Source: Candidatus Levyibacteriota bacterium (GTDB lineage Bacteria > Patescibacteriota > Microgenomatia > Levybacterales > GWA1-39-11). Taken from it: DNA of 64,000 bases. Below, one piece after another: positions 1,261 to 64,000 of the stretch. A program made the translations under genes and the position numbers. Numbering within the stretch: the stretch's first letter is position 1; every line of letters starts with the position of its first letter. The stretch is from assembly GCA_039738415.1 (NCBI GenBank), contig JBCLLY010000006.1, positions 1,814-65,813 on the forward strand, written 5' to 3'. The notes under the pieces are model-generated. The model was not told where the DNA came from. It saw only the letters and a program-made list of their open reading frames with translations, and made no database searches.

Positions 1261-3101
1261 GCTTGTCTTGTCTGAGAGCGGTCGCGGCGTGCTGCAGCTT
1301 CGTCAAGAATAATTTTTCTAATCCTTATATTTTTTGGAGTTACTTCAACTAGCTCATCATCCGCGATATATTCCAGCGCGTCTTCAAGTCCCATAATCTT
1401 TGGTGTTCTAAAATATTCAGTGACTCCATCTCCTTTAGAGCGCATATTTGTTAAATGCTTTGTTTTGCATACATTTATACCCAAATCATCACTTCTCGCA
1501 TTTTTCCCTACAACCTGACCTTTATATACAGGAGTTTGAGGTCCTATAAAAAGCAGTCCTCTGTCCTGAATATTTGCCAGTCCGTATTGGTTAGAAATAC
1601 CTGTCTCGTGTGCTACCAGCGACCCTTGTTCGCGCTCGTGAGTATATCCATTGTCCGGTGCGTATTCGTGAAAAAGAGTATTAATTATTCCCAAACCTTT
1701 TGTGTCGGTCACAAGTTCTCCGCGGTAACCAAATAATCCCTTTGAAGATACGATAAAATCCAGTGACGCAATTCCATTATCAGAGCGCATATCCCTCAGC
1801 TCACCCCTACGCTCTCCCATTTTCTGGATTACTGTTCCCAAATACTCTTCAGGTACTTCGATAAATACTTGCTCGTATGGTGTTAGTTTTTTACCATCGA
1901 TCATTTTGTCAATTACTTGTGGTCGTCCGACTTGAAATTCAAAACCCTCCCTGCGCATTCTTTCAATTAAAATTGCCAAGTGCAGTTCCCCACGTCCCGA
2001 TACTATCCACCCGCCTTGACTACCAATAGGCGAGGCAGGCCCACCGACAGAATTATTTTCAACGCGTAGTGCCATATCGGTCTCAGTCTCTTTGTAAAGT
2101 CTTTGTTCAATTTGACGTGAAGTCTTGAATTCTCCTTCATGTCCTGCAAAAGGTGAGTTATTTACCATAAATTGTGCGCGGATAGTTGGCTCTTCAATTT
2201 TAAGTAGGGGTAGTGCTATCGGATTATTAATATCTGCTAGCGTTTCTCCTATTACAGGTTCCGGTATTCCGGCAATAGCGACTATATCTCCAGCTTGAGC
2301 TTCTTTTACTTCTACTTTATCAAGACCCAAAAATGTCATAAGAGAGCTAATCTTTTCTTTTTTTACTTGCCCACTTCTGTTAATGTGAGCGATTTCCTGT
2401 CCAGAGGTAATTGTTCCGTTATATATCCGGCCTATTGCAATGCGTCCCTTGTGTTGGTCGTTGGCAAGAGTTGTTATAAGCATTTGAAGAGGCGCGTTAG
2501 GATCAACAACCGGTGCCGGAATTTCTTTAAGTATGGTTTCAAATACCGGCGTTATGTCAGTCATGTCCGCCAATGATTCAGTAAGTCCTGCTTTACCATT
2601 TTTTGCGCTAGCATAGATTATAGGAAAGTCGGCAGTAATATCATCTGCGCCTAATTCTAAAAAGAGATCTAGGGTTTTGTCCAATACATAGTGTACTCTG
2701 GCATCGGATTTGTCAATTTTATTTACAACTACAATTATTTTATGTCCCATCTCAAGCGCCTTTTTCAAAACAAATCTTGTTTGGGGCATAGGACCTTCTT
2801 TTGCGTCAACTAAAAGCAGACATCCGTCTGCCATCCCTAAAACTCTTTCGACTTCTCCTCCAAAATCAGCGTGACCCGGCGTATCGATAATGTTTATTTT
2901 AACGCCCCCCCACATGACAGATGCATTTTTAGAAAAGATAGTAATTCCGCGTTCGCGCTCCAATTCATTACTATCCATGATAAGAGTTTGCGCAGTATCC
3001 TTGTGCATCTGCGTTCTAGACTGAGTTAATAGAGCGTCGACCAGGGTTGTTTTACCATGGTCAACGTGTGCAATTATTGCTATGTTTCGAATGTCATTCA
3101 T
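1248..3101 (-). CDS. typA: translational GTPase TypA/BipA
   Basis: N-terminus [22 protein letters not shown] with [14 protein letters not shown] and NKID G-motifs. Length 617 aa. SD AAGGAGGA lies upstream of the ATG. Confidence 0.9.
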
Positions 3102-3140
3102 ATTTGAAATATCCTCCTTAGCTTACTTTTCGCCTTTTCA

Positions 3141-3156
3141 TCCGCCAGCTGGCGGA
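3141..3156. repeat. 16-nt perfect GC-rich palindrome TCCGCCAGCTGGCGGA in the typA leader
   Basis: Self-complementary. 15 nt (TCCGCCAGCTGGCGG) recur inside gatB at 30843-30857. Confidence 0.9.
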
Positions 3157-3219
3157 ACGGCTTAAAGAGCGCAATCGGAGGATTGTGTACTATTTACAAA
3201 AAATACTTGTACACAAAAA

Positions 3220-3238
3220 AACCGCCTCTTTTGCGGTT
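3220..3238 (-). terminator. terminator-like hairpin (AACCGC/GCGGTT) followed by T7 on the minus strand, upstream of typA
   Basis: The minus strand reads AACCGC-aaaagag-GCGGTT-TTTTTTT. No minus-strand gene lies upstream of it, so it is a possible attenuator or the end of a small RNA. Confidence 0.4.
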
Positions 3239-3298
3239 GCCTATATTATAACAGAAATACTATAAGAATAAAAAATTAAAAGTGTACCAATTTAGCGT

Positions 3299-3327
3299 TT
3301 GAACTAATAGCCTCATTTAACTATAAT
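3299..3327 (+). promoter_or_regulatory. sigma70-type promoter of ileS (TTGAAC-N17-TATAAT), implying a leaderless mRNA
   Basis: -35 TTGAAC at 3299-3304, 17-nt spacer, -10 TATAAT at 3322-3327. The ATG at 3334 is only 6 nt after the -10 and has no SD. Confidence 0.6.
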
Positions 3328-3333
3328 AACAGT

Positions 3334-6180
3334 ATGTTTAAATCTGTTGAGCCACAAGTATCCTTTCCTCAGGTTGAAGAAGGGATTATTAAGTTCTGGA
3401 AAGAAAATAAAATCTTTGAAAAATCAGTGGATAAAGACTACGGAGGGCGAAAGTGGACATTTCTTGACGGTCCTCCGTTTGTGACGGGAATGCCTCACTA
3501 TGGCTCTCTTCTATCTTCTTTACCTAAAGATGTATTTGGCCGCTACTTTACTATGAAAGGATACAAAGTCCGTCGTGTATGGGGTTGGGATGGTCACGGT
3601 TTGCCGATAGAAAATAAAGTAGAGGGAATTTTGAATATAAAGCGCAAACGTGACATCGAAGATGTTGTAGGAGTTGCTAAATTTATTGAGGAGTGTAGAA
3701 GGTATGTAGAGGATGTATCAGGGGAGTGGGAATGGTACATAGATCACATAGGACGTTGGGTAGATTTTAAAAATGCATATAAGACTTGGGATACAGATTA
3801 TATGGAATCTGTTATGTGGGTATTTAAAAATCTATACGAAAAAGGTCATATTTATAAGGGACTTCGCGTTTCGCTTTATTGTCCGCATTGTTCAACTCCA
3901 ATTTCTAACTTTGAAGTTGCTATGGATAGTGATAACTACAAAGATGTTGTAGATATGGGAACGACTTATAAATACAAGTTGGAAGGTGAGAAAGACACTT
4001 ATATCCTTGCTTGGTCGACTACTCCATGGAATAAAATTGTAACTTCTGCTTTGGCGGTAAATCCAGATTTAATTTATGTAAAAGTTAAGCCCCACTCCGC
4101 TGAAGCTTTGAGGGACAAGCAGAATGAAGAATTTTATATCCTTGCAAAATCTACAACTAAGGTACTGGGGGATGAAAATTCATTTGAAATAATCGAGGAA
4201 TTTAAAGGTAGCGAGTTGGTTGGAAAAAAATACGAATCGCATTACGATTACTATAAGGATAAAGTAAAAGAAGGGGAGAGGGTATTTGAGATAGCAGGAG
4301 GGGATTTTGTAGCAGCTGAGGAAGGAACGGGAGTAGTTACAATAGCTGCTTACGGGGAGGAAGATTTGAAGCTTATGAAGGAAGAAAACATCCACATAGA
4401 GCTTCACGTTGATGAGGAGGGCATAATATTACCTGAAGTTCCTAAGTTTGGAGGAATGTATTATCTCAAAGCAAGCAAGGCAGTAAATGAGGATTTAGCC
4501 TCTCGAGGGCTAATATATAAGGACGAAGAATTGGTTCATAGTGTTCCTTTGTGCTGGAGATGTCATACCAGACTTTATTATGCACCTCTTGACGCCTGGT
4601 TTGTAGATGTACAAAGTCTTAAAAATAGGCTTAAGAAAACCAATGAAGAAGTTAACTGGTTCCCCAAACATTTTAAAACAGGGAGATTTTTAAAAAGCCT
4701 CGAAAATGCTCCGGACTGGAATATTTCAAGAAACAGGTATTGGGGTTCTCCTGTTCCTGTCTGGGAATGTGCATGCGGGAATAAAATCGTGACTGGTTCC
4801 ATAGCGGAAATAGAGGAACTTTCGGGTGTTCGAGTAACAGATTTGCACAAACCTGAAATAGACCATATTCAAATAATGTGCAAAAAATGTGGACAGATGG
4901 CAAAAAGAGTACCAGAAGTACTCGATAGCTGGATAGAATCAGGAAGCGCTTCATTTGCTGAGAGGCATTATCCCTTTAGCGATGACAGGTTAGAAGATTT
5001 TTACCCCCCGGATTTCATCGCTGAATATACAGGACAGATTAGAGCATGGTTTTATGTGCTTCACGTAATAGGCGGAGGTTTGTTTGACTCTAAAGCATTC
5101 AAAAACGTACTAGTTGAGGGTGTAATTTTGGGTACTGATGGGCGCAAGATGAGCAAAAATTATGGAAATTACCCCGATCCTAAAGAGATGTTAGAAAAAT
5201 ACGGAGGAGATGCTTTAAGGCTGTATCTATTGGGAAGTAACGTGATGCACGGTGAGGATATAAAAATTTCTGAGGAAGATTATCGCGACCAGGTCAAAGG
5301 AAGTATGCTTATTTTATGGAATGTTTATAACTTTTTCATATCAAATGCAATTCTTCAGAAGTGGGAATACTCCAATTCAAGTACAAATTCTGAAAATATT
5401 TTGGACAAATGGATACTCAGTAAATCAGAGGGATTAAGAAATGATGTAACTAAAGCGCTGGACGGGTATGACACTGTTGTTGCGATAAGCGCACTAAAGG
5501 CATTTATTACCGACTTTTCGACATGGTACATACGGCGTAGTAGGGAGAGGCTTTATGGGGAGGAAAAAGAGGATATAGACGCGTTTTTTGCGACTACAAG
5601 CCATATTCTTATTAAATTATCGAAGTTAATTGCACCAATTGCCCCCTTTGTCTCTGAGGAAATATATAAAAATATAACCGGTGAGGAATCGGTTCATCTA
5701 TCTTTATGGCCGGAAGAGGACAATGGTTTGTTAAATTTAGATCTTGAAAACGAAATGGAGATTGCCCGTCAGATTGTTGAGTTAGTACATTTTGAGAGAA
5801 AAAAAGCTCAAATTAAAGTAAGACAACCACTTGAAAAAATAACAGTAGTATTAGAATCGGAGCTGTCTGAACCAATAAAAGAAGTTATAAAACTAGAGGT
5901 AAATGTTAAAAATATCGAAGTTGTAAAAGGTGAAAAGCTGAGAGTTGTGCTTTATACCGAAATTACTGAGGATTTAAGGCAAGAGGGGGAGGCAAGGGAG
6001 ATAATTAGAAAAATACAACAGGAGAGAAAAAAACTTGGAACAAAAAGAGACGAATTGGTTAATGTTTATTTAAATTCATGGCCTGAAAGCTTTGTGGAAG
6101 AAATAAAAAGACGAGCTTTGGTTTCTGAAATGAAAAAGTCGGTGAATTTTGAGTTAAAACGCGTTAATGAAGACAAATAG
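3334..6180 (+). CDS. ileS: isoleucine--tRNA ligase (type 2-like)
   Basis: PPFVTGMPHYGS (HIGH-like), WNISRNRYWGSPVPVW and KMSKN motifs. Length 948 aa. Confidence 0.9.
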   Translation: MFKSVEPQVSFPQVEEGIIKFWKENKIFEKSVDKDYGGRKWTFLDGPPFVTGMPHYGSLLSSLPKDVFGRYFTMKGYKVRRVWGWDGHGLPIENKVEGILNIKRKRDIEDVVGVAKFIEECRRYVEDVSGEWEWYIDHIGRWVDFKNAYKTWDTDYMESVMWVFKNLYEKGHIYKGLRVSLYCPHCSTPISNFEVAMDSDNYKDVVDMGTTYKYKLEGEKDTYILAWSTTPWNKIVTSALAVNPDLIYVKVKPHSAEALRDKQNEEFYILAKSTTKVLGDENSFEIIEEFKGSELVGKKYESHYDYYKDKVKEGERVFEIAGGDFVAAEEGTGVVTIAAYGEEDLKLMKEENIHIELHVDEEGIILPEVPKFGGMYYLKASKAVNEDLASRGLIYKDEELVHSVPLCWRCHTRLYYAPLDAWFVDVQSLKNRLKKTNEEVNWFPKHFKTGRFLKSLENAPDWNISRNRYWGSPVPVWECACGNKIVTGSIAEIEELSGVRVTDLHKPEIDHIQIMCKKCGQMAKRVPEVLDSWIESGSASFAERHYPFSDDRLEDFYPPDFIAEYTGQIRAWFYVLHVIGGGLFDSKAFKNVLVEGVILGTDGRKMSKNYGNYPDPKEMLEKYGGDALRLYLLGSNVMHGEDIKISEEDYRDQVKGSMLILWNVYNFFISNAILQKWEYSNSSTNSENILDKWILSKSEGLRNDVTKALDGYDTVVAISALKAFITDFSTWYIRRSRERLYGEEKEDIDAFFATTSHILIKLSKLIAPIAPFVSEEIYKNITGEESVHLSLWPEEDNGLLNLDLENEMEIARQIVELVHFERKKAQIKVRQPLEKITVVLESELSEPIKEVIKLEVNVKNIEVVKGEKLRVVLYTEITEDLRQEGEAREIIRKIQQERKKLGTKRDELVNVYLNSWPESFVEEIKRRALVSEMKKSVNFELKRVNEDK

Positions 6181-29770: not shown

Positions 29771-31219
29771 TCATTCTAGCATTTCGATAACCTTTTCTCT
29801 AATTTGGTCGTTGTTTTTTGCCTCGGGTAGAGTTCTTTTTACCATACCCATTAAAAATCCTACCACTTGCGTTTTGCCTAATTTATAATCTGTAACAGCT
29901 TGTGAGTTTTCTCTTAAGACCTGTTTGATAGCATTTTGGAGCTTGTCTTCGTTTATTGATTCCATACTTGATGCTTCAAGAATTTCTTTAATTAGAGTAG
30001 CAGGAAGAACTTGATCTATGTTTATTTTTTTATTTATTATAAATCCTGCTATTTTTTGAGGATTTACTTTATGTTCTTTACCAATTTCTACTGCCTGCTC
30101 AAAATAGTCAGCAAGGCTTTTTTCCTTTGTTAAGATTTGCGCGTCGTATTGTTTTATTCCATAATCCACTTCAAATCTTTGTACTCTTATAGATGGAAGT
30201 TCAGGGATTGATTCTTTAATTTTTTTAATCTGCTCATCGCTAAATTCAATAGGTGGTATATCAGGTTCCGGAAAATATCTATAGTCATGAGCTTCTTCTT
30301 TGCTTCTTTGGCTAACTGTTTTATTTTTAAATTCGTTCCATCCGCGCGTTTCCTGAACAGGTATTTCTCCCTTATCTAATAATTCTTTGTGACGCTTCTC
30401 TTCAAATTGGATAGCCTTATCAACAAATTTGAATGAGTTGATGTTTTTCACTTCAACTTTGTACTTCGCAAGAGTTGTCTGTCCAGGTGGACGCAATGAA
30501 ATATTTGGTTCAAGTCTCATGTGCCCCTTCTCCATGTCAGCGTCAGAGACTCCTAAATAGCGGATGATTTTTTGAAGTTCTGTTAGAAATATTTTTGCCT
30601 CTTCACCTGACCGGATGTCGGGCTCGGTAACAATTTCAACAAGGGGAACTCCCGAGCGATTAAAATCAATTAAACTTACTTCTTTCCCATCAACTGTGGA
30701 GTGCATTAATTTCCCTGTGTCCTCTTCCATGTGGACACGGGTGATGCCAACTCGTTTATTAATCATCTTTGTCATCCGAGCCCGCTTCGCCGAAGCCTCA
30801 TTGATGCGAGCTTGTCCAGGATCATTTTTTGATTCCGGTGTCTCCGCCAGCTGGCGGGTCCCCAGAATGACGGGAACCTGTATATCCAAATATCCTTTTT
30901 CTCCGAAGGGGTGAAGGTATTGGCTGGTTTGAAAACCTTTTGCTAAATCCGGGTAGAAATAATTTTTTCTCTCAAAAAATGAACTATTGTTTATTTCACA
31001 ATTTAGCGCAAGTGCTATTTTTACACAGCATTCAATTGCTTGTTGGTTAGTGTAGGGTAGAGCGCCTGGAAGTCCCAGACAGACTGGGCAAGTGTTCGTG
31101 TTTGGCTTGTCTGTTAGTGTTGGATTTTTGCAACGACAAAACATTTTGCTAAATGTTCCTAGCTCAACGTGTATTTCAAGTCCAACTATCGTTTCGTAAG
31201 CATTTGGTTTAATATTCAT
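29771..31219 (-). CDS. gatB: Asp/Glu-tRNA amidotransferase subunit B (carries an extra internal segment of about 34 aa)
   Basis: YETIVGLEIHVEL and GITRVHMEEDTGK motifs. The extra GC-rich block encodes ILGTRQLAETPESKNDPGQARINEASAKRARMT. Ends in TGA. Confidence 0.9.
   Translation of the reverse strand: MNIKPNAYETIVGLEIHVELGTFSKMFCRCKNPTLTDKPNTNTCPVCLGLPGALPYTNQQAIECCVKIALALNCEINNSSFFERKNYFYPDLAKGFQTSQYLHPFGEKGYLDIQVPVILGTRQLAETPESKNDPGQARINEASAKRARMTKMINKRVGITRVHMEEDTGKLMHSTVDGKEVSLIDFNRSGVPLVEIVTEPDIRSGEEAKIFLTELQKIIRYLGVSDADMEKGHMRLEPNISLRPPGQTTLAKYKVEVKNINSFKFVDKAIQFEEKRHKELLDKGEIPVQETRGWNEFKNKTVSQRSKEEAHDYRYFPEPDIPPIEFSDEQIKKIKESIPELPSIRVQRFEVDYGIKQYDAQILTKEKSLADYFEQAVEIGKEHKVNPQKIAGFIINKKINIDQVLPATLIKEILEASSMESINEDKLQNAIKQVLRENSQAVTDYKLGKTQVVGFLMGMVKRTLPEAKNNDQIREKVIEMLE
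30771..30871. repeat. GC-rich palindromic block inside gatB (candidate in-frame mini-insertion)
   Basis: Ends GTCAT...ATGAC are inverted. Contains the palindromes GCTTCGCCGAAGC and CCGCCAGCTGGCGG (30844-30857). Composition is far more GC-rich than the flanking gatB sequence. Boundaries are approximate. Confidence 0.5.
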
Positions 31220-52262: not shown

Positions 52263-52466
52263 GAGAATGTATATTTTAACATTTTGAGCCTATTCTAGCC
52301 AAAAGTCAAATAAATTTGAATTTATTTGCAATGCTACGATTTGGCACAAAATCCTAAAGTCGGGTTGGAATGAGTTAAAAAAGAAGCCTTTTTCTATAAG
52401 TACCTATTGTCAATCTCAGCTTGCACTGAGCTTGCTCGCCTCGCTGAGTCGAAGCGGGCCAAAGTG

Positions 52467-56971: not shown

Positions 56972-57053
56972 TACCTTAAATAGTGCACCTTACCCTTGCA
57001 CTTCGGAGATCTCAGTGTAAACAAAAAGAGGGGCGCAGTCCTTTATGTGAGTA
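56972..57053 (+). repeat. intergenic repeat family T, copy 2 (with a 24-nt internal insertion)
   Basis: 27-nt core identical to copy 1. The tail AAAAGAGGGGCGCAGTCCTTTATGTGAGTA is a degenerate version. Confidence 0.8.
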
Positions 57054-57166
57054 CTTTTGTTCGTTTATTCGAACAATTGGTATAGAAAAGCTATTAATCT
57101 AATGGTTCGATATATTAGAACAATTGTTTTAGGTTTCTAGTTTTAAGTTTTACGTTTATTCTCCAG

Positions 57167-57341
57167 CCTCAGGAGAATACATTTTATTCTATCGTTTGAA
57201 TGGATGGTTTTGTTTAGTCTAATGTTTCGATACATTAGACTGGGTGTTTGAATTTATTTGGGAGTAGAGGTGAGGCCTCTATTCAGTTTATCTCAGGATT
57301 TGGGTTTCATTGGTGAAAAGGTCTCACCTCTACACGGTAAT
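57167..57341 (+). repeat. 175-bp direct repeat R, copy 1 (two internal hairpins)
   Basis: 169 of 175 positions identical to 60428-60602. Hairpin 1 at 57216-57241 (10-bp perfect stem AGTCTAATGT/ACATTAGACT, loop TTCGAT). Hairpin 2 at 57264-57333 (14-bp stem GTAGAGGTGAGGCC/GGTCTCACCTCTAC). Confidence 0.9.
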
Positions 57342-57359
57342 TTGTATTATAATTTTTAT

Positions 57360-57581
57360 ATGCCGATTATATTTTCTGATCACGCAAAACAGCAGTTGAG
57401 AAGAAGGAAAATACCCCAAAAATTAGTAATTGAAACAATTAAAAACTTTGAGGGTAAAGGCGCAAGTTTTAAGGAGCGTAAGTTGCGGCAAAAGACGTTT
57501 GGTGATAAAATATTGGAGGTGGTAACAAAGACCGAAGGATCAAAAGTAACGGTTATTACAGGTTACTATATTAATAAATAA
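57360..57581 (+). CDS. DUF4258-like protein (putative toxin of a two-gene TA-like pair)
   Basis: MPIIFSDHAKQQLRRRKIP... The ATG at 57360 sits 6 nt after TATAAT (57348-57353). The longer track ORF reads through repeat R. Confidence 0.6.
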   Translation: MPIIFSDHAKQQLRRRKIPQKLVIETIKNFEGKGASFKERKLRQKTFGDKILEVVTKTEGSKVTVITGYYINK

Positions 57582-57583
57582 TT

Positions 57584-57784
57584 ATGAAAATGAGATACGA
57601 TAAAAAAGTAGATGCAGTCTACATTGAATTGGCAAAAGGCTTATATGATAGTTCGCGCAAAGTGTCTGATGTGATTGTGGTGGATGAAGATAAAAAGGGA
57701 AAAGTTTTGGGAATAGAAATTTTGGATGCCTCTAAAAATATTAATGCATTTGACCCAAAATCTATATCTGTAGCTACCTCCTAG
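57584..57784 (+). CDS. DUF2283-like protein (putative antitoxin partner)
   Basis: YDKKVDAVYIELAKG...GKVLGIEILDASKNI pattern. Starts 2 nt after the upstream stop. Confidence 0.6.
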   Translation: MKMRYDKKVDAVYIELAKGLYDSSRKVSDVIVVDEDKKGKVLGIEILDASKNINAFDPKSISVATS

Positions 57785-57827
57785 TTTTTTTATTCAAGCC
57801 TTAATTTGTAACGAATACAATCTCAAC

Positions 57828-57887
57828 AAAATTCGCATCCCAGCCTTGACTAGACCGCCGAGTCTAGGCGGGCCAGCTACAGGAAAG
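57828..57887 (+). repeat. junction repeat J, copy 1
   Basis: AAAATTCGCATCCCAGCC-TTGACTAGACCGCCGAGTCTAGGCGGGCCAGCT-ACAGGAAAG. Confidence 0.85.
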
Positions 57888-57935
57888 TATATCTAGTATT
57901 CAATATGAGCGTGCGAGTGTAGTGGTTGCACAGAT

Positions 57936-57959
57936 GTATGATATATCGATATATCATAC
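57936..57959. promoter_or_regulatory. 24-nt perfect palindrome GTATGATATATCGATATATCATAC
   Basis: Exactly self-complementary. Intergenic, about 160 bp upstream of the KilA-N gene. Operator-like. Confidence 0.5.
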
Positions 57960-58067
57960 AGACAAGATGGGTAAATGGGGGGAAGTGAAACTCTTTTACG
58001 TAGAGGTTTTACTTTTATATAAACATAACACGCTGAGGGTTGATGACTAAATTCTAAAAATAGTAAT

Positions 58068-58204
58068 CCAGCCTCAGGAGTGATAATATAAATAAATCAG
58101 ACAAAGCCTTTTAAATTATGAAAAGTAAAAAAATAGAAGTGAAAGGAATTGTAATTGCCACATTTAGCAAAAACGAAAAAGACTATATTTCCCTGACTGA
58201 TATG
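58068..58204 (+). repeat. 137-nt exact duplication, copy 1 (KilA-N upstream region plus first 29 codons)
   Basis: Identical to 62098-62234. Confidence 0.9.
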
Positions 58205-58945
58205 GCAAAGTTTAAATCCTATGATAGTGGAATAGTCATTGCTAATTGGCTGTCAACAAAATACACAATTCAGTTTATGGGAGCTTGGGAACAATTACAT
58301 AATCCGAATTTTAATCTTATTGAATTCCATAAGATTAAAAGTGAAGCTGGATCAAATGGATTTATTGTTTCATCCTCATTTTGGATCAAACAAACTAAGG
58401 CAATTGGAATTATCTCAAGTGCAGGTAGATATGGGGGAACTTATGCCCATAAAGATATTGCTTTTGAGTTTGCAACCTGGCTTTCTCCAGAGTTCAAACT
58501 TTTTCTTATTAAAGAATTCCAAAGACTTAAGGCAGAAGAAAGTGAGCGGCTTGAATTGGGTTGGGATTTGAAAAGAACATTGGCAAAAATTAATTACCGT
58601 ATTCACACAGATGCGATTAAAGAGCATCTCATCCCACCAAAAATTTCTCAAAAATCAACTCAAATCATTTACGCCACTGAGGCAGATGTATTAAATGTAG
58701 CTTTGTTTGGAATAACAGCAAGAATATGGCGTGATCAAAATCCAAAAAGGGAGGGGAACATCCGAGACTATTCTACTGTAGAGCAACTGGTAGTACTCTC
58801 AAACCTTGAAGGAATGAATGCGGAATTTATCCGACAAGGACTATCTCAAAGCGCGCGACTAGTAAGACTTAATATAAATGCAATTTCTCAAATGAAGTCA
58901 CTTCTTGGAAACCCAGCGGTGAAAAAGTTAGAAAAACAAAAATAG
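58118..58945 (+). CDS. KilA-N domain-containing protein
   Basis: ISLTDMAKF...GRYGGTYAHKDIAFEFATWLSPEFKLFLIKEFQRLK, typical of the KilA-N family often found near restriction-modification loci. Confidence 0.8.
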   Translation: MKSKKIEVKGIVIATFSKNEKDYISLTDMAKFKSYDSGIVIANWLSTKYTIQFMGAWEQLHNPNFNLIEFHKIKSEAGSNGFIVSSSFWIKQTKAIGIISSAGRYGGTYAHKDIAFEFATWLSPEFKLFLIKEFQRLKAEESERLELGWDLKRTLAKINYRIHTDAIKEHLIPPKISQKSTQIIYATEADVLNVALFGITARIWRDQNPKREGNIRDYSTVEQLVVLSNLEGMNAEFIRQGLSQSARLVRLNINAISQMKSLLGNPAVKKLEKQK

Positions 58946-58948
58946 TAT

Positions 58949-58997
58949 CTCAGCCTCGACTAGACCGCCGAGTCTAGGCGGGCCAGCCACCGGAAAC
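58949..58997 (+). repeat. junction repeat J, copy 2
   Basis: CTCAGCC-TCGACTAGACCGCCGAGTCTAGGCGGGCCAGCC-ACCGGAAAC. Begins 4 nt after the KilA-N stop. Confidence 0.85.
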
Positions 58998-59006
58998 AGT
59001 TTTAAT

Positions 59007-59042
59007 ACGGAGAAGGTGTACCCCCAAATCACGGAGAAGGTG
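59007..59042 (+). promoter_or_regulatory. 12-nt perfect direct repeat ACGGAGAAGGTG x2 (24-nt period) upstream of a promoter
   Basis: Copies at 59007-59018 and 59031-59042. Possible regulator-binding sites. Confidence 0.4.
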
Positions 59043-59065
59043 AAATATCCGTCTTATACAAAGTG

Positions 59066-59093
59066 TTGAAATAATCTTAACTCATAGTATAAT
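59066..59093 (+). promoter_or_regulatory. sigma70-type promoter TTGAAA-N16-TATAAT driving a leaderless transcript of the 231-aa ORF
   Basis: -35 at 59066-59071, -10 at 59088-59093. The ATG at 59099 is 5 nt after the -10 hexamer. Confidence 0.6.
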
Positions 59094-59098
59094 GCGGT

Positions 59099-59794
59099 AT
59101 GAGTAATTTTAGAGAGGAAATGGACAAAGCAAGAAGGGCTGCTGAAGAAGCAAGTAGAAATAATCAAAAAAAAGTTGAAAAGTCAGAGTTGGATGTCAAT
59201 TCATGGGGATATCTCTGGAAAAAAAAGGAATTGCAAAAAGACTATCAGGGGATATATATAGAAAATGTTATAGTGCCAGTCATAGCAGAGGTGAGGCAAG
59301 TTTTAAACGAACAAAGAAAGGGAGATGAATGGTCAAGCAAAAGAGTGCAAGACCATGTTGACTTTAGAATCAACTGGCCAGGGGGTGACGGTGCTGAAGG
59401 GGCTGACCCACATACACAACACTATCATGAAATATTTGATGGCGTATTACTTACACAAGTACAAAAAACTGGACTGTTACGTAGACCAGTTGTACTACAA
59501 ATATTTTCCGGCTTTACTCAAGATGTACGGGAAGGCAGTGATATTTCACATACCGTTTTAATTAGGGCTGCATTAAGTTCTGATAGAAATAGATGTGCTG
59601 TTGAGCTAGGACAAAATCCAATTGATAGCAGTTATTATTGGATTCCGGGAAATAATGCTTGGATTCATCAAGTAGAACATAGTATTGAAAATATAATATC
59701 ACCATCCTCAGAAGTGGCTTCTAATGAGATGAGTAGACTACGTTCTCATCTTTCATCCATTGTTGTTTCTCTCCAAGGAAAAGGAAATATGTAG
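59099..59794 (+). CDS. hypothetical protein (231 aa), no recognised family
   Basis: Long ORF with a charged coiled-coil-like N-terminus. Locally more GC-rich than its surroundings. Confidence 0.5.
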   Translation: MSNFREEMDKARRAAEEASRNNQKKVEKSELDVNSWGYLWKKKELQKDYQGIYIENVIVPVIAEVRQVLNEQRKGDEWSSKRVQDHVDFRINWPGGDGAEGADPHTQHYHEIFDGVLLTQVQKTGLLRRPVVLQIFSGFTQDVREGSDISHTVLIRAALSSDRNRCAVELGQNPIDSSYYWIPGNNAWIHQVEHSIENIISPSSEVASNEMSRLRSHLSSIVVSLQGKGNM

Positions 59795-59812
59795 ATGGAG
59801 TATGTATAAATG

Positions 59813-59870
59813 AATTCGCATACCAGCCTCGACTAGACCGTCGAGTCTAGGCGGGCCAGCCACCGGAAAT
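59813..59870 (+). repeat. junction repeat J, copy 3
   Basis: AATTCGCATACCAGCC-TCGACTAGACCGTCGAGTCTAGGCGGGCCAGCC-ACCGGAAAT. Confidence 0.85.
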
Positions 59871-60061
59871 TTGTCCAGTTTGATCTAGTTGTTAATAGTT
59901 GACACTACAAATATAGTGGTTTAACATAATTTTGGATACTACATAGCAGCGGAATAGGAGAAGGAGATATGGGAAGAGTTTTTACATTTGAAATCACAGC
60001 ACCAAGGACGCACAAAAGCGACGGAGGTGTTTTTTTGTGGTTATTCTTATGAAAGGAGGTG

Positions 60062-60337
60062 ATGAAAATGAAAGAAAAAAAACAAAGTCAGGAAGTCCAA
60101 ATTAATTTCGATTTTGGTGCAGAACCAATTTTGTATACTGACTCAATTTTTATTACATCAAATGAAGATGGAATAATTATTAACTTCAGTCAACCTCAAG
60201 CCATTCCTACACAACAGAAAGTTGTAGCAAGAATAGGTATGAGTCGGGAACATGCCAAAAAGTTCATTCAAAAAATTAGCAATTTATTTGCTATTACTGA
60301 AAATAATAAGCAAATTGGTCAAAAGTCCCAGAATTAA
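60062..60337 (+). CDS. DUF3467-like protein
   Basis: ILYTDSIFITSNEDGIIINFSQ...KVVARIGMSREHAKKFIQKISNL resembles the DUF3467 pattern. SD AAAGGAGGTG upstream. Confidence 0.55.
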   Translation: MKMKEKKQSQEVQINFDFGAEPILYTDSIFITSNEDGIIINFSQPQAIPTQQKVVARIGMSREHAKKFIQKISNLFAITENNKQIGQKSQN

Positions 60338-60342
60338 CCTAG

Positions 60343-60370
60343 AGCCGGCTGGGAGAAATCCCACTCGGCT
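60343..60370 (+). other. hairpin AGCCG-gct-GGGA-GAAA-TCCC-act-CGGCT with a GNRA tetraloop
   Basis: Follows the DUF3467 stop. Its 5' arm contains GGCTGGGA, the reverse complement of the junction-motif core TCCCAGCC. Confidence 0.6.
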
Positions 60371-60427
60371 TGCTCCATTTCTGATCATAACAAAAAAATA
60401 AGGAAATTAAAATAATTAGGAAACTGA

Positions 60428-60602
60428 CCTCAAGAGAATACATTTTATTCAATCGTTTGAATGGATGGTTTTGTTTAGTCTAATGTTTCGATACATTAGA
60501 CTGGGTGTTTGAATTTATTTAGGAGTAGAGGCGAGACCACTATTCAGTTTATCTCAGGATTTGGGTTTCATTGGTGAAAAGGTCTCACCTCTACACGGTA
60601 AT
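60428..60602 (+). repeat. 175-bp direct repeat R, copy 2
   Basis: Six mismatches relative to 57167-57341. Same orientation, same length. Confidence 0.9.
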
Positions 60603-60644
60603 ATAGTGCTATGTGGATGGCCGAGGTTTTGGTTTCTTTAGATT

Positions 60645-61502
60645 TTAACTCCAGCTTTCCCCAAGATATTGAACAAGTAATTCGCGCAGTCGTTCTCCGC
60701 CAATAAGTTCAACATTGTTAACTTTCGCTAGCTGAATGGCTTCTGGAGTGAAATATGAGGTAGTAACAACCATAGCGCGCGTGCAATTATAAAGTTTTAA
60801 TGCAGTACTAGCTTCTTGCACCGCAGAATTACCAACGGATCCTGTATAGCACTTTGCTTGCACAACAACCCTTTCTGAGCCCATATTCACAACTAAATCA
60901 CAACCCTGATCACCAGTTTTACCTGTTTTCATAGCAGAGTATCCCATCGCTTCATATAATTTACATAAAAGAACTTCAAATTCAGTACCCGTTAATTGGC
61001 TAGTTGTATGAGGTATGCTTGCGATGCTGTCGCGGACAAATTTATCCTCTTTATTATAAATGTAATGCTTAAGTAGCAAGCTAATATCTTTATAGTCGTC
61101 CATAGAGAGTTTGACACCTTTGTCATGTAGCGCTTTTCTGAAGATTTCTAGCTGCTGCCATGTGAACGAGAACTCTCCGTCTTTCCATAAATCTTTTCCT
61201 GCCTTTTTTTGATAGCCAAGACTGTTTATAAAGTTTTTTATATTTTCATCAGCTCCAGCTTGTTTAACTGAATCAAGCAAATCTGATATTTTCTTCTTTT
61301 GTCTCTTTGATTGAAAATCATGCCATGCATAAATTCCAATCACTATGAGAACAAGTGCTATTGCGCCACCCCAAAGCAAGACAAAAAAAAGGGAGTTATT
61401 GGTTTTAAAAAGAGATACTAAATAAAAAGTAGCCAATACAAAAATAAAAAATATTATTTTTGCTAATGTGTAATCATTATTCCTATATCTCCCTCGAGCC
61501 AT
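60645..61502 (-). CDS. membrane-anchored restriction endonuclease-like protein (Mrr_cat-type PD-(D/E)xK domain)
   Basis: The ATG at 61500-61502 (MARGRYRNNDY) is preferred. Two N-terminal TM helices. C-terminus FEVLLCKLYEAMGY...GDQGCDLVV...VVQAKCY... Confidence 0.7.
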   Translation of the reverse strand: MARGRYRNNDYTLAKIIFFIFVLATFYLVSLFKTNNSLFFVLLWGGAIALVLIVIGIYAWHDFQSKRQKKKISDLLDSVKQAGADENIKNFINSLGYQKKAGKDLWKDGEFSFTWQQLEIFRKALHDKGVKLSMDDYKDISLLLKHYIYNKEDKFVRDSIASIPHTTSQLTGTEFEVLLCKLYEAMGYSAMKTGKTGDQGCDLVVNMGSERVVVQAKCYTGSVGNSAVQEASTALKLYNCTRAMVVTTSYFTPEAIQLAKVNNVELIGGERLRELLVQYLGESWS

Positions 61503-61646
61503 ATAATAATAGTAGCACATTTTTCTTAAGGACTGAAAGGAGCAATTAACAAAATTAAATGGGAATTCGCAAAATTCGCATCCCAGAATCAGGAGTGGTA
61601 GAATAGAGTTCATCGAATTAATGTTTAATAAGAAAATTAAAAATAT

Positions 61647-62090
61647 ATGGAAAAAATCAATCTATTCGACCTAAAAACACTACTCAAGGGAAGGGATTGG
61701 GCAGACTTGACGAAGCAGGAACGGTTGGAAATCTCCCAAAAAATATTAGACCTGATTTCACAGGATTAGCCAAGTTTGTAAACGAAAATCCTCAAGGATT
61801 TACTATCAACATAAATGGAGTACCAGCCACTAAGGGTTTTGTGGTATCACCTTACAAGGGTAGGGAAACTATTCTTGAAATAGTAGATGAGAATTCTATC
61901 AGAGATTTTATATCAAAAAACATAGATTTATTACAACAAGAAGGTAATTTTTTTGGAGGATGGAAAAATTCAAAGGGAAAATTCTAGATATTATGGAAGG
62001 GCAGGTAAAATATTATCCCAACGGGAAAATTTTTGATACCAATGACCCTAACCACAACAGAAGCTTGGAAATTTTAATTAGAAGCAAAAT
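61647..62090 (+). pseudogene. fragmented gene: three consecutive ORF pieces in different frames
   Basis: Pieces are MEKINLFDLKTLLKGRDWADLTKQERLEISQKILDLISQD*, then ...FVNENPQGFTININGVPATKGFVVSPYKGRE...FFGGWKNSKGKF*, then MEGQVKYYPNGKIFDTNDPNHN.... Consistent with frameshift and nonsense decay. Confidence 0.35.
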
Positions 62091-62097
62091 TCGCATC

Positions 62098-62234
62098 CCA
62101 GCCTCAGGAGTGATAATATAAATAAATCAGACAAAGCCTTTTAAATTATGAAAAGTAAAAAAATAGAAGTGAAAGGAATTGTAATTGCCACATTTAGCAA
62201 AAACGAAAAAGACTATATTTCCCTGACTGATATG
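62098..62234 (+). repeat. 137-nt exact duplication, copy 2
   Basis: Identical to 58068-58204. Confidence 0.9.
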
Positions 62235-62490
62235 CTGCGGGCTAAAGATGGTGATTTCTTTATTTCTGATTGGTTGAGAAATAGGAATACAGTTGAATTC
62301 ATTGGTATATGGGAAAAGTTGAATAATCCGAATTTTAATTATGGCGAATTTGCCATAATTAAAAGTCAGGTAGGATTAAACAGCTACAAGATTAGTGTTA
62401 AAGAGTGGGTCGTGTAATACTTAATCTTACACAATCTCTCAAATGAAGTCACTTATCGGGAACCCAGCAGTGAAAAAGTTAGAAAACCGG
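62148..62490 (+). pseudogene. KilA-N gene remnant (mosaic with an internal deletion)
   Basis: The first 29 codons are identical to the 58118 copy. These are followed by a divergent KilA-N N-domain (WLRNRNTVEFIGIWEKLNNPNF), a premature stop at 62415-62417, then the out-of-frame C-terminal tail (QMKSLIGNPAVKKLE). Confidence 0.7.
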
Positions 62491-62548
62491 AATTCGTAAT
62501 CCAGCCTCGACTAGACCGTCGAGTCTAGGCGGGCCAGCCTCAGGAAAG
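62491..62548 (+). repeat. junction repeat J, copy 4
   Basis: AATTCGTAATCCAGCC-TCGACTAGACCGTCGAGTCTAGGCGGGCCAGCC-TCAGGAAAG. Lies immediately upstream of hsdR. Confidence 0.85.
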
Positions 62549-62582
62549 TGGAATTTAAGTTCAAGAAGTGGTAGAATAAATC

Positions 62583-64000
62583 ATGATATTTAACGAAAAC
62601 ACTAGGGTAAAGATTCCTGCATTGATTCATTTGACACGACTTGGCTATCTTTATTTTTCATTGAAAGATCAAAATTACGAAGTCGATCCAGACACAAATA
62701 TTATTACGAACGTACTAACTAGAAAGATCAAAGAACTTAATCCTGATGCTACGGATGAATCTGTTATCCAAGAATTGCAGAATATTAAAGAAGAACTAAA
62801 TTATGATGATTTAGGAAGAGCGTTTTATAAGCGTTTAATTGGAGATGGGGATGGGAGCCTAAAACTTATAGAGTGGGATAAGTTTGGTAATAATTTGTTT
62901 CATGTGACTTCAGAGTTAACGTGCAAGAGTGGGGAAGATGAATTCCGGCCCGATATTACAATCTTTATTAATGGACTACCCCTCTCATTTATAGAGGTAA
63001 AGAAGCCCAATAACCCAGAAGGTATTAAGGCTGAGCGAGATCGTATAAATGTTCGTTTCAAAAATGACAAATTTCGACGATTTATCAATGCCACACAGCT
63101 GATTGTTTTCTCCAATAACATGGAATACGACGATACCGACACTAACAAACTTCAAGGTGCATTTTATGCAACCACTGCAAAAAACACGGATACAAAATTT
63201 AACAACTTACGTGAGCAAAAAAGGTCTGAATTTATAGATGAGATTAAAGCCATAGATGAGCGTATAGAGGATTTTATTCTCTTAGATAATAACTGCAGGA
63301 TTATTAAGCATTCTCCTGAATTCTTGTCTAACAAAGATATAGACACCCCGACCAATCGAATTTTATCGTCGTTGTTTAGTATGTTCAGGCTAAGAGATCT
63401 GCTTAAATATGGGATCTGTTATGTCGACGAAGTTGAGGAAAATACAGGCAAAGTAACTATAGAAAAACAAGTCATGAGGTATCCTCAGTTTTTTGCCACC
63501 AAAGCAATTAAGACTAAGCTTGACGAAGGTATGAAAAGGGGTGTGATTTGGCACACTCAGGGTTCAGGTAAAACAGCTTTATCCTTTTACAACGTTCATT
63601 CACTTAAAGATTATTTTGCCAAAAATGGAGTGATTCCTAAGTTCTATTTTGTAGTTGATCGTCTTGATCTTGCTACACAAGCAAAAGAAGAATTTAGCAA
63701 GCGTGGAATGACAACAAATACTATTGATAGCAAGGAAGCATTACTTGAAGACTTTAAAAATAATACCTCAACGGAAGGTATTACTGTTTTAAATATCCAC
63801 AAATTTCGAGAAGATACTATGGCACTTGATGACAGTGGATACAATATAAATTTACAACGCATATTCTTCATTGACGAAGCTCATCGTAGTTATGATCCAA
63901 AGGGTTCTTTCTTGGCAAATCTTTACAGCTCAGACAAAAATTCCATAAAAATAGCTCTTACAGGCACACCACTAATTATCTATAAAGATCATGATGATCG
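62583..64000 (+). CDS. hsdR: type I restriction enzyme R subunit (N-terminal part, continues beyond window)
   Basis: Not in the ORF track because there is no stop within the window. Nuclease motif FRPDITIFINGLPLSFIEVKKP, helicase Walker A WHTQGSGKT and DEAH box FIDEAHRS. Confidence 0.9.
   Translation, partial: MIFNENTRVKIPALIHLTRLGYLYFSLKDQNYEVDPDTNIITNVLTRKIKELNPDATDESVIQELQNIKEELNYDDLGRAFYKRLIGDGDGSLKLIEWDKFGNNLFHVTSELTCKSGEDEFRPDITIFINGLPLSFIEVKKPNNPEGIKAERDRINVRFKNDKFRRFINATQLIVFSNNMEYDDTDTNKLQGAFYATTAKNTDTKFNNLREQKRSEFIDEIKAIDERIEDFILLDNNCRIIKHSPEFLSNKDIDTPTNRILSSLFSMFRLRDLLKYGICYVDEVEENTGKVTIEKQVMRYPQFFATKAIKTKLDEGMKRGVIWHTQGSGKTALSFYNVHSLKDYFAKNGVIPKFYFVVDRLDLATQAKEEFSKRGMTTNTIDSKEALLEDFKNNTSTEGITVLNIHKFREDTMALDDSGYNINLQRIFFIDEAHRSYDPKGSFLANLYSSDKNSIKIALTGTPLIIYKDHDD

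Follow-up and report, generated by a model that had tools for sequence, protein, structure and literature searches.

We analysed a 64,000-nt stretch of DNA from a Candidatus Levyibacteriota bacterium (contig JBCLLY010000006.1; this whole stretch is called the window) and characterized a GC-rich block of 101 nt located inside its gatB gene. Our results make it likely that two CGTC-tagged hairpin units, NTS-like and associated with the Ssn family of GIY-YIG nucleases, form this block as an inverted dimer that lacks the gene and has decayed, and that the dimer was inserted in frame at the tip of a beta-hairpin in the cradle domain of GatB, where it is translated as a probably floppy surface loop of 35 residues. 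The evidence comes from the comparison of GatB with its homologues, from the anatomy of the block, and from related dimers and nuclease-bearing elements found in other genomes.

The GC-rich block is an in-frame insertion in GatB

A preliminary description of this DNA, made from the letters alone, had noted some 34 extra residues in GatB at a place where other GatB proteins have a short loop, and strikingly GC-rich DNA encoding them. Both observations were borne out. In an alignment with the 120 nearest GatB homologues, the extra residues are the 35 from P116 to T150, and 117 of the 120 homologues have a three-residue turn there instead, within the motif DI.V-NGx-TKRIGITRVHMEED. These homologues are at most 71% identical to the window protein over their full length and are mostly 442-445 aa long, and the named ones belong to Candidatus Levybacteria and Patescibacteria. 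Only two of them, P0026 and P0106, share something with the window protein at the insert site. The GC content of the block (30771-30871) is 58.4%, as compared with 36.6% in the rest of gatB and 36.2% in the window, and only 0.11% of 101-nt segments are as GC-rich. Together with the flanking CC and AA (30769-30873) it amounts to 105 nt, or exactly 35 codons. The gene stands in the order gatC-gatA-gatB-dnaE (for its position and that of the other features, see Table 1).

When mapped onto solved GatB structures, the insert fell between residues 109 and 115 of the Thermotoga maritima protein. An AlphaFold model built from an alignment of 60 homologues (mean predicted local distance difference test score, pLDDT, of 85) placed it at the tip of a long beta-hairpin whose two strands are formed by residues 106-118 and 150-166. 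The insert was modelled mostly as coil, with a pLDDT of about 57 over residues 121-150 versus 89-95 in the flanks, a low value that may partly reflect the few insert-bearing sequences in the alignment. Since 117 of the 120 homologues lack the segment, since it is placed between T. maritima residues 109 and 115 and since its GC content is foreign, the block is an in-frame insertion in GatB. Two other homologues carried small inserts of their own, TLQQAQGRQDE after the HMEEDTGK motif in P0080 and NSTKNEYI near the same turn in P0099.

Two inverted hairpin units make up the insertion

The inverted ends GTCAT...ATGAC and the palindromes GCTTCGCCGAAGC and CCGCCAGCTGGCGG, all named in the preliminary description, are present. 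On the plus strand, GTCAT occupies positions 30771-30775 and ATGAC positions 30867-30871, and these ends bound two hairpin units whose GTCAT tags face outwards. Unit A, of a type that we call long, retains its outer stem with one T/G mismatch and encodes VILGTRQLAETPES; its layout recurs in the related loci L097, L039, L098, L112, L062, L092, L061 and L001. Unit B is a short unit with an interrupted stem. It reads GATCCTGGACAAGC...GGATGAC on the coding strand, encodes the peptide DPGQARINEASAKRARMT, has GATCCTGGACAAGCCAGGATGAC as its counterpart in P0026, and matched the short-unit profile over positions 30810-30826 (nhmmer, E = 0.005). The 30 extra nucleotides within it represent either the acquisition of a nested hairpin or an expanded loop, as also seen in loci L125 and L127. 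Both units keep the frame GTC/AT...AT/C, and their tag bases (C-GTC-ATTCTGG in unit A and T-GTC-ATCC in unit B) fit an unpaired CGTC/TGTC tag.

Table 1. Positions of the gatB insertion, its parts and related features (window coordinates, or loci where these are named)
Feature	Position or locus	Strand	Remarks
gatB host gene	29771..31219	-	482 aa; Pfam GatB_N + GatB_Yqey; frame intact, catalytic motifs conserved
Inverted hairpin-unit dimer, GTCAT...ATGAC, 101 nt	30771..30871	-	GTCAT tags outward
Unit A, long type	30831..30871	-	C-GTC-ATTCTGG-GGAC-CCGCCAGCTGGCGG-AGACA-CCGGAAT-C
Inner hairpin of unit A, 14-nt perfect palindrome CCGCCAGCTGGCGG	30844..30857		
Spacer between units, 7 nt, A-rich	30824..30830	-	AAAAAAT on coding strand
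Unit B, short, stem interrupted	30771..30823	+ (tag)	GTC-ATCC/GAGCCCGCTTCGCCGAAGCCTCATTGATGC/GAGCTTGT-CCAGGAT-C
Extra 30 nt within unit B	30778..30807		Palindrome GCTTCGCCGAAGC (30784-30796), GAGC direct repeat at borders
Solo hairpin ATCCGCCAGCTGGCGGAA	3140..3157		Between the divergent typA and ileS, about 40 nt 5' of the typA start
ssn-bearing loci	L043, L058 (Saccharibacteria), L092 (Patescibacteria), L098 (Levyibacteriota)		Fifth, partial copy in L094

When the 64 kb of the window were scanned for units, the gatB copy was the only one found, and a tblastn search returned no ssn homologue in it. We regard the window copy as a relic, with one stem broken and with neither an ssn gene nor a second copy present over the 64 kb.

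Related dimers are widespread in Patescibacteria and beyond

A clean dimer was found at the same site in the gatB gene of P0026, with the sequence GTCATTCTGG-GGAATGAAATGACT-CCAGAATC, the spacer AAGTAAA and GATCCTGG-ACAAG-CCAGGATGAC. The 13.5-kb contig of P0106 (L002) carries eight units: three in murT (a dimer plus one single unit), one in gatB, and four that form two dimers between genes. Scanning the sequence collection for the short unit GATYCTGGNCAAGCCAGRATGAC returned at least 120 stretches. Among the matches listed were Levyi-, Davies-, Gottesman-, Roizman-, Shapiro-, Peri-, Berkel-, Howlett-, Sacchari- and Gracilibacteria, as well as Nitrospirota (Thermodesulfovibrionales), gammaproteobacterial metagenome-assembled genomes and others.

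From these related sequences the form of the unit is YGTC-ATYCTGG-loop-CCAGRAT-C, and a dimer consists of two inverted units with the GTCAT tags facing out (Y-GTCAT-hairpin ... hairpin-ATGAC-R in the intact relatives). We determined how regular this arrangement is in 122 loci gathered with the short-unit pattern, by searching for GTCATYC and requiring the complement of the next 7 nt within 60 nt. A hairpin arm followed the heptamer in 332 of 521 cases, as compared with 19 in reversed or complemented controls. Among neighbouring unit pairs, 98 of 108 had both tags outwards and 10 had any other arrangement, the median length of a dimer being 70 nt. No target-site duplication accompanied 92 of the 98 dimers, whose flanks followed the pattern YY/GTCAT...ATGAC/RR, and 290 of 316 units had a pyrimidine (T or C) before GTC.

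Two kinds of unit were distinguished. The short unit has the consensus GTCATTCTGGCTTGTCCAGAATC, with a 5-nt loop and a 7-bp stem that starts AT...AT. The long unit, which is recurrent, has the form GTCATTCTGG-GGA-inner hairpin-GAC-N-CCAGAATC, with loops of 14-45 nt, and the sequence of its inner hairpin varies from copy to copy (L097, L039, L098, L112, L062, L092 and L061). The palindrome CCGCCAGCTGGCGG thus belongs to a normal long unit, as its inner hairpin; an origin as a nested foreign insertion, which had also been considered, was rejected because long units with a variable inner hairpin recur. Extra inner hairpins were present in the short-unit loops of two gatB inserts from Joint Genome Institute (JGI) metagenome contigs (L125, about 995-1049, and L127, about 2563-2614). 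Short-unit loops, including that of window unit B, appear prone to gain further palindromes. Searching the window, L001 and L002 against Rfam at gathering thresholds matched only tRNAs.

Copies lie in frame in many proteins and repeatedly at one site in GatB

Stop-free frames of at least 150 aa enclosed 24 of the 98 dimers. Nine dimer hosts were confirmed with Pfam (CysS, GuaA, Ddl, MurB, TrmD, ATP-dependent DNA ligase, a MiaB-like radical SAM protein, FemAB and the CCA-adding enzyme), MurT was a further in-frame host, and overall the in-frame copies are distributed over at least 11 protein families. Dimers are also found between genes, in Patescibacteria, Nitrospirota and other phyla. Translation of the copies yields recurring peptides (VILG..PES..D[SP]GQARMT, RHSG..., VIPAKAGIQ and others). 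As read from its sequence, a clean short unit is stop-free in five of the six frames; in the worn window copy only the used frame and one antisense frame are open. The elements account for recurring peptides such as VILG...DSGQARMT, VIPAKAGIQ and RHSRESGNPE, and for many of the odd GC-rich extra loops in metagenomic proteins, which is of use for annotation.

The likeness to Rickettsia palindromic elements (RPEs) that had been suspected for the gatB block was therefore well founded: nearly all orthologues lack the segment, which belongs to a repeat family present in many genes and genomes, and the palindromic insertions are in frame, in unrelated genes and at sites that the structure tolerates. 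Discussion of in-frame palindromic repeats has mostly centred on Rickettsia, and they are found here in bacteria of the candidate phyla radiation (CPR) as well. CPR bacteria likewise have very small genomes, yet tolerate such passengers in indispensable enzymes, namely GatB, aminoacyl-tRNA synthetases and cell-wall enzymes.

A scan of metagenomes for the short unit just 5' of the VHMEED codons identified five more GatB proteins in which a dimer occupies this hairpin tip. Together with the window protein, eight GatB proteins have the element there, and they are 48-70% identical to each other. The window copy and P0026 share one junction, and at least three others are used, after NGH/NGY, after VEVNKS and after VDINSLS. 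These several junctions show that the GatB hairpin tip is a repeated landing or survival site. Common descent of the window and P0026 inserts, which have an identical junction, would be one possibility, but the two proteins are not sisters in a neighbour-joining tree of GatB. When a 63-aa peptide spanning the P0026 insert was used as a query, the single match was P0121, a 43-aa fragment of another insert-bearing GatB.

The recurrence at one hairpin tip in eight GatB proteins could also mean benefit rather than tolerance, and the segment would then be an old lineage-specific loop or an adaptive gain, for example in tRNA or partner contacts, with palindromes that are incidental. The conserved frame and the full conservation of the rest of GatB agree with such an explanation. 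We nevertheless consider it improbable, given that 117 of the 120 nearest homologues, including those at 76% identity, do without the segment, that the same DNA element and peptides (VILG...DPGQARMT) are found in unrelated proteins and in spacers, that the composition is foreign to gatB, and that the insert is modelled with low confidence and mostly as coil. An inserted hairpin-unit dimer is the explanation that we retain.

Two further hosts were seen among the related loci. In L018 (positions 4863-5388), three single units of the same orientation, about 240 nt apart, each lie in frame (...DSGQARM) in a gene of a 636-kb contig that is UvrC-like by eye; REP inserts in excision-repair genes were noted in PMC3733652, where REP stands for repetitive extragenic palindrome. 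In L097, from Gottesmanbacteria, a stop-free frame of 2227 aa predicts a giant protein with at least two in-frame dimers and with further unit-derived peptides (RFWTSQNDG) near its N-terminus.

The same units flank a gene of the GIY-YIG family

In four loci (Table 1), an open reading frame (ORF) of 96-101 aa was enclosed by a plus-strand and a minus-strand unit about 300 nt apart. The encoded proteins matched the Pfam family GIY-YIG (PF01541) with E values of 1e-10 to 1e-12. The layout of these elements is a long (or short) unit, a short leader, the gene, and an inverted short unit overlapping the gene end. One gene-less dimer of L092 has a long unit that agrees with the ssn-flanking long unit at 39 of 42 positions. 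Because the ssn genes of the four loci are flanked by the same two units, we interpret the gatB insert as a gene-less derivative of the hairpin-ssn-hairpin element, similar to a miniature inverted-repeat transposable element (MITE).

When the plasmid collection was searched by tblastn with the GIY-YIG protein, Neisseria gonorrhoeae records of 2.17 Mb were matched. The ORF found there has 94 aa, with Y6 and Y17, is directly followed by CCCGTCATTCCCGCTCAGGCGGGAATCC and is preceded by inverted copies of it. The Levyibacteriota GIY-YIG protein and this Neisseria SsnA homologue are 46% identical (E = 2e-24). No match to the Levyibacteriota protein was obtained in NCBIfam, in PDB sequences or in the phage collection.

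The Neisseria ORF matches the description of SsnA in PMC11893778. SsnA is described there as a 94-aa single-domain GIY-YIG nuclease, for which the mutants Y6A, Y17A and E64A were used, and which binds and cuts NTS DNA (CGTCATTCCCGCGMAVGCGGGAATCYRG) only when it is single-stranded. Its binding requires the C that follows the palindrome, and its cleavage requires the three bases in front of the palindrome; the gene layout NTS-ssnA-NTS is also described. The units studied here share with NTS the frame GTCATTC...GAATC around a hairpin, with GTC before and C after the palindrome, as well as the hairpin-ssn-hairpin layout and, as said, a flanked protein 46% identical to the Neisseria SsnA homologue. 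They differ in their inner stem and loop. The available text of PMC11893778 contains no mention of Patescibacteria or of in-frame or intragenic insertions, no description of gene-less dimers that we found, and no citation of the 2013 work on CGTC-tagged REPs.

The elements resemble CGTC-tagged REPs

By its tag and hairpin form, the window element fits the superfamily of CGTC-tagged REPs (Di Nocera et al., 2013; PMC3733652). Repeats of this superfamily have a CGTC or TGTC tag (with TGTC/CCTC variants) and form the families CGTC-1 to CGTC-4. Their stems of 8-9 bp begin with A-T pairs, their loops have 4-5 nt and their tails are short. They are mostly arranged as inverted dimers, their intragenic copies encode 20-30 residues, and no dedicated transposase is known for them (PMC3733652). 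The units described here have in common with them the unpaired C/T-GTC tag, the stem opening with A-T and T-A pairs, the 4-5 nt loop of the short unit, the tail starting with C, the predominance of inverted dimers and the intragenic dimers of 20-30 residues. In contrast, our units have a stem of 7 bp, include a long type with loops of 14-45 nt and a second, variable inner hairpin, are found in Patescibacteria and Nitrospirota, phyla absent from the list in PMC3733652, and are linked to a flanked gene, whereas PMC3733652 found none.

According to the same paper, CGTC-1 corresponds to dRS3 of Neisseria, and CGTC-1 and CGTC-4 correspond to RPE-6 and RPE-4 of Rickettsia conorii, respectively; the link of the present units to RPE-4 and RPE-6 is taken from that statement. 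Elements of the RPE-1 type (Ogata et al., 2000; PMC10969869) are likewise palindromic repeats inserted in frame in unrelated housekeeping genes of a small-genome, host-dependent bacterium, where they add surface peptides compatible with the fold. RPE-1 differs in being about 150 bp long with its own conserved peptide, in another organism and with another repeat sequence. In the literature searched, we found nothing among the results listed that joins MITEs with CPR bacteria, and nothing joining RPEs with GIY-YIG proteins. The wider pattern comprises a new stem family, a long unit with an inner hairpin, a hot spot in GatB, and ends that are common to dimers and to the elements with the nuclease gene. 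Through these shared ends, the related loci join the CGTC-tagged REPs, which have no known enzyme, and the Ssn nuclease with its flanking hairpins.

The architecture of the insert also recalls that of REPINs, doublets of GTAG-type REPs moved by RAYT, a tyrosine transposase of the IS200/IS605 kind (their biology is described in PMC3116915). In both, two hairpins stand in inverted orientation, a conserved tag is left unpaired, the spacer is short and a target duplication is lacking. Presumed single-stranded intermediates are a further likeness to REPIN/RAYT and to the 'peel and paste' mode of IS200/IS605. That the segment is itself a REPIN is very improbable, as its tag is YGTC and not GTAG, the gene between the units encodes a GIY-YIG nuclease (PF01541) and not an HUH Y1 transposase, and PMC3733652 reports no RAYT flanked by CGTC units.

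Proposed mechanism and alternatives

On this basis, the insertion of a CGTC-tagged dimer in gatB could have occurred as follows. Autonomous versions would carry, between the hairpins, a gene of about 100 aa for the GIY-YIG single-strand nuclease Ssn, and the dimer, which has the ends and the orientation of such an element, would be this element minus its gene. Acting in trans, Ssn may read the single-stranded hairpins through the GTC before and the C after the palindrome, and may set the ends of the element with cuts in single-stranded DNA just beyond each GTC tag. The dimers would travel as dimers, without target-site duplication, since a full element would put a stop codon in an essential gene. 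Selection would then retain only the copies that keep the frame in tolerant loops, helped by units that are stop-free in most frames, and the copy in this genome would be a fossil that is passively carried. We tentatively propose, as one possibility, that the hairpin-ssn-hairpin elements are true transposons driven by a GIY-YIG nuclease, and that the gene-less dimers (the gatB insert, the dimers of other CPR housekeeping genes and, by extension, RPE-4, RPE-6 and dRS3) are their MITEs. If this is true, the orphan CGTC REPs gain their missing enzyme through a mode of transposition so far undescribed, and the GatB hairpin tip offers a natural recurrent landing site for study.

Several points weigh against this identification and mechanism. 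To our knowledge, strand transfer by GIY-YIG nucleases is not known, which weighs on the re-insertion of an excised dimer. The whole window copy folds no better than shuffled sequence (z = -0.46), a value consistent with decay of that copy, as compared with -2.4 and -2.9 for clean dimers and -2.0 for unit A alone; unit B has no significant fold. The window holds no ssn gene and no second intact unit, and activity in this genome is unproven. The 122 loci, having been gathered through the short-unit pattern, are a biased sample for copy statistics; the partner units and orientations are independent of the short-unit seed. The stem has 7 bp (ATYCTGG), different from the 8-9 bp of CGTC REPs. In PMC11893778 (published in 2025), SsnA is cast as a transformation regulator and not as a transposase, and is shown only to cut. 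Finally, the SRM pattern published there, HGTCWYN(0-2)YYVSBRHN(0-5)WNVSBRGN(0-2)RNCYNB, had 0 matches in the window and matched 11 of the 332 units in related loci, all 11 of the GTCATTCCC type; the CTGG-stem family does not fit it.

The identification of the insert could be correct even if Ssn were not the mover. Another transposase, slippage or template switching at hairpins, or recombination could have spread the dimers, and Ssn would be a domesticated nuclease that only targets hairpins, whose role might be the restriction of single-stranded DNA entering the cell, as in Neisseria. This alternative is possible, although we hold it doubtful. It agrees with the lack of known strand-transfer chemistry in GIY-YIG enzymes and with a window that has a dimer but no ssn, and also with the reports that SsnA limits transformation, no transposition being shown (PMC11893778), and that no dedicated transposase accompanies CGTC REPs (PMC3733652). 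It accounts less readily for gene-less dimers that keep exactly both ends of the ssn element, in the same orientation and nearly identical within one genome. Moreover, the GatB dimers must have arrived as dimers if a full element would break an essential gene, and the different GatB junctions imply repeated insertion.

A probably related hairpin in the typA leader and other features of the window

The 15-mer TCCGCCAGCTGGCGG of the gatB block had been said to recur exactly at 3141-3155 in the leader of typA, and it does so within a 16-nt perfect palindrome. With up to two mismatches allowed, it had 4 matches versus 0.02 expected, a number reached by 0 of 100 shuffles. A similar recurrence claimed for the 10-mer GCCCGCTTCG at 52450-52459, in the tRNA-Lys flank, is a real match, but at chance level, at least two matches being obtained in 18 of 100 shuffles. 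The typA-leader hairpin shares its 14-nt palindrome with the inner hairpin of unit A, and has near-miss tags (GTTCC...GGATGAA) on the typA strand. Solo hairpins of the ATCCGCCAGCTGGCGGAT type were found at two Gottesmanbacteria loci in addition to the typA leader, all with near-miss tags. The presence of the same hairpin type at the two Gottesmanbacteria loci makes the link plausible, and, judged from the sequence, the typA-leader hairpin is probably a related solo unit. In the same typA/ileS spacer (3101-3334), a terminator-like hairpin with a T-run lies on the typA strand upstream of the typA leader (GGCAACCGCAAAAGAGGCGGTTTTTTT, about 3215-3241), which could be a leader or an attenuator.

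Extra GC-rich segments had also been indicated in TypA and IleS. Both are indeed longer there than the solved structures, and neither was retained as a repeat. TypA has a GC-rich insert of 9 aa (GGPASPIGS, about 2010-2040, minus strand) relative to Escherichia coli BipA; among 70 representatives aligned, it is common solely to the window protein and its nearest representative, P0122. As it has no repeat features and is shared only with P0122, its derivation from the repeat was dropped, and it is a small expansion of a loop. In IleS, the region of the editing domain (window 4090-4122) is longer than in solved IleS by about 8 residues (PHSAEALRDKQ); this segment, taken by eye for a worn short unit (GGACAAGC.AGAATGA), was dropped as well, the scan with the short-unit profile giving E = 40 (nhmmer).

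Another GC-rich repeat, about 62 nt long and unrelated to the first, is present in four copies, at 57825-57886, 58935-58996, 59808-59869 and 62486-62547. The copies are 84-89% identical to the reference copy and contain an 11-bp hairpin (GCC.CG.CTAGAC/GTCTAG.CG.GGC) with no GTCAT tag, and at least two of them lie just 3' of ORFs. The region in which they occur (57000-63000) looks like an accessory island, with genes for DUF4258, KilA-N and an Mrr-type restriction endonuclease, and a weak match to DUF3467. It also contains direct repeats of 175 and 149 nt with 97% identity (57167/60428 and 58056/62086, respectively).

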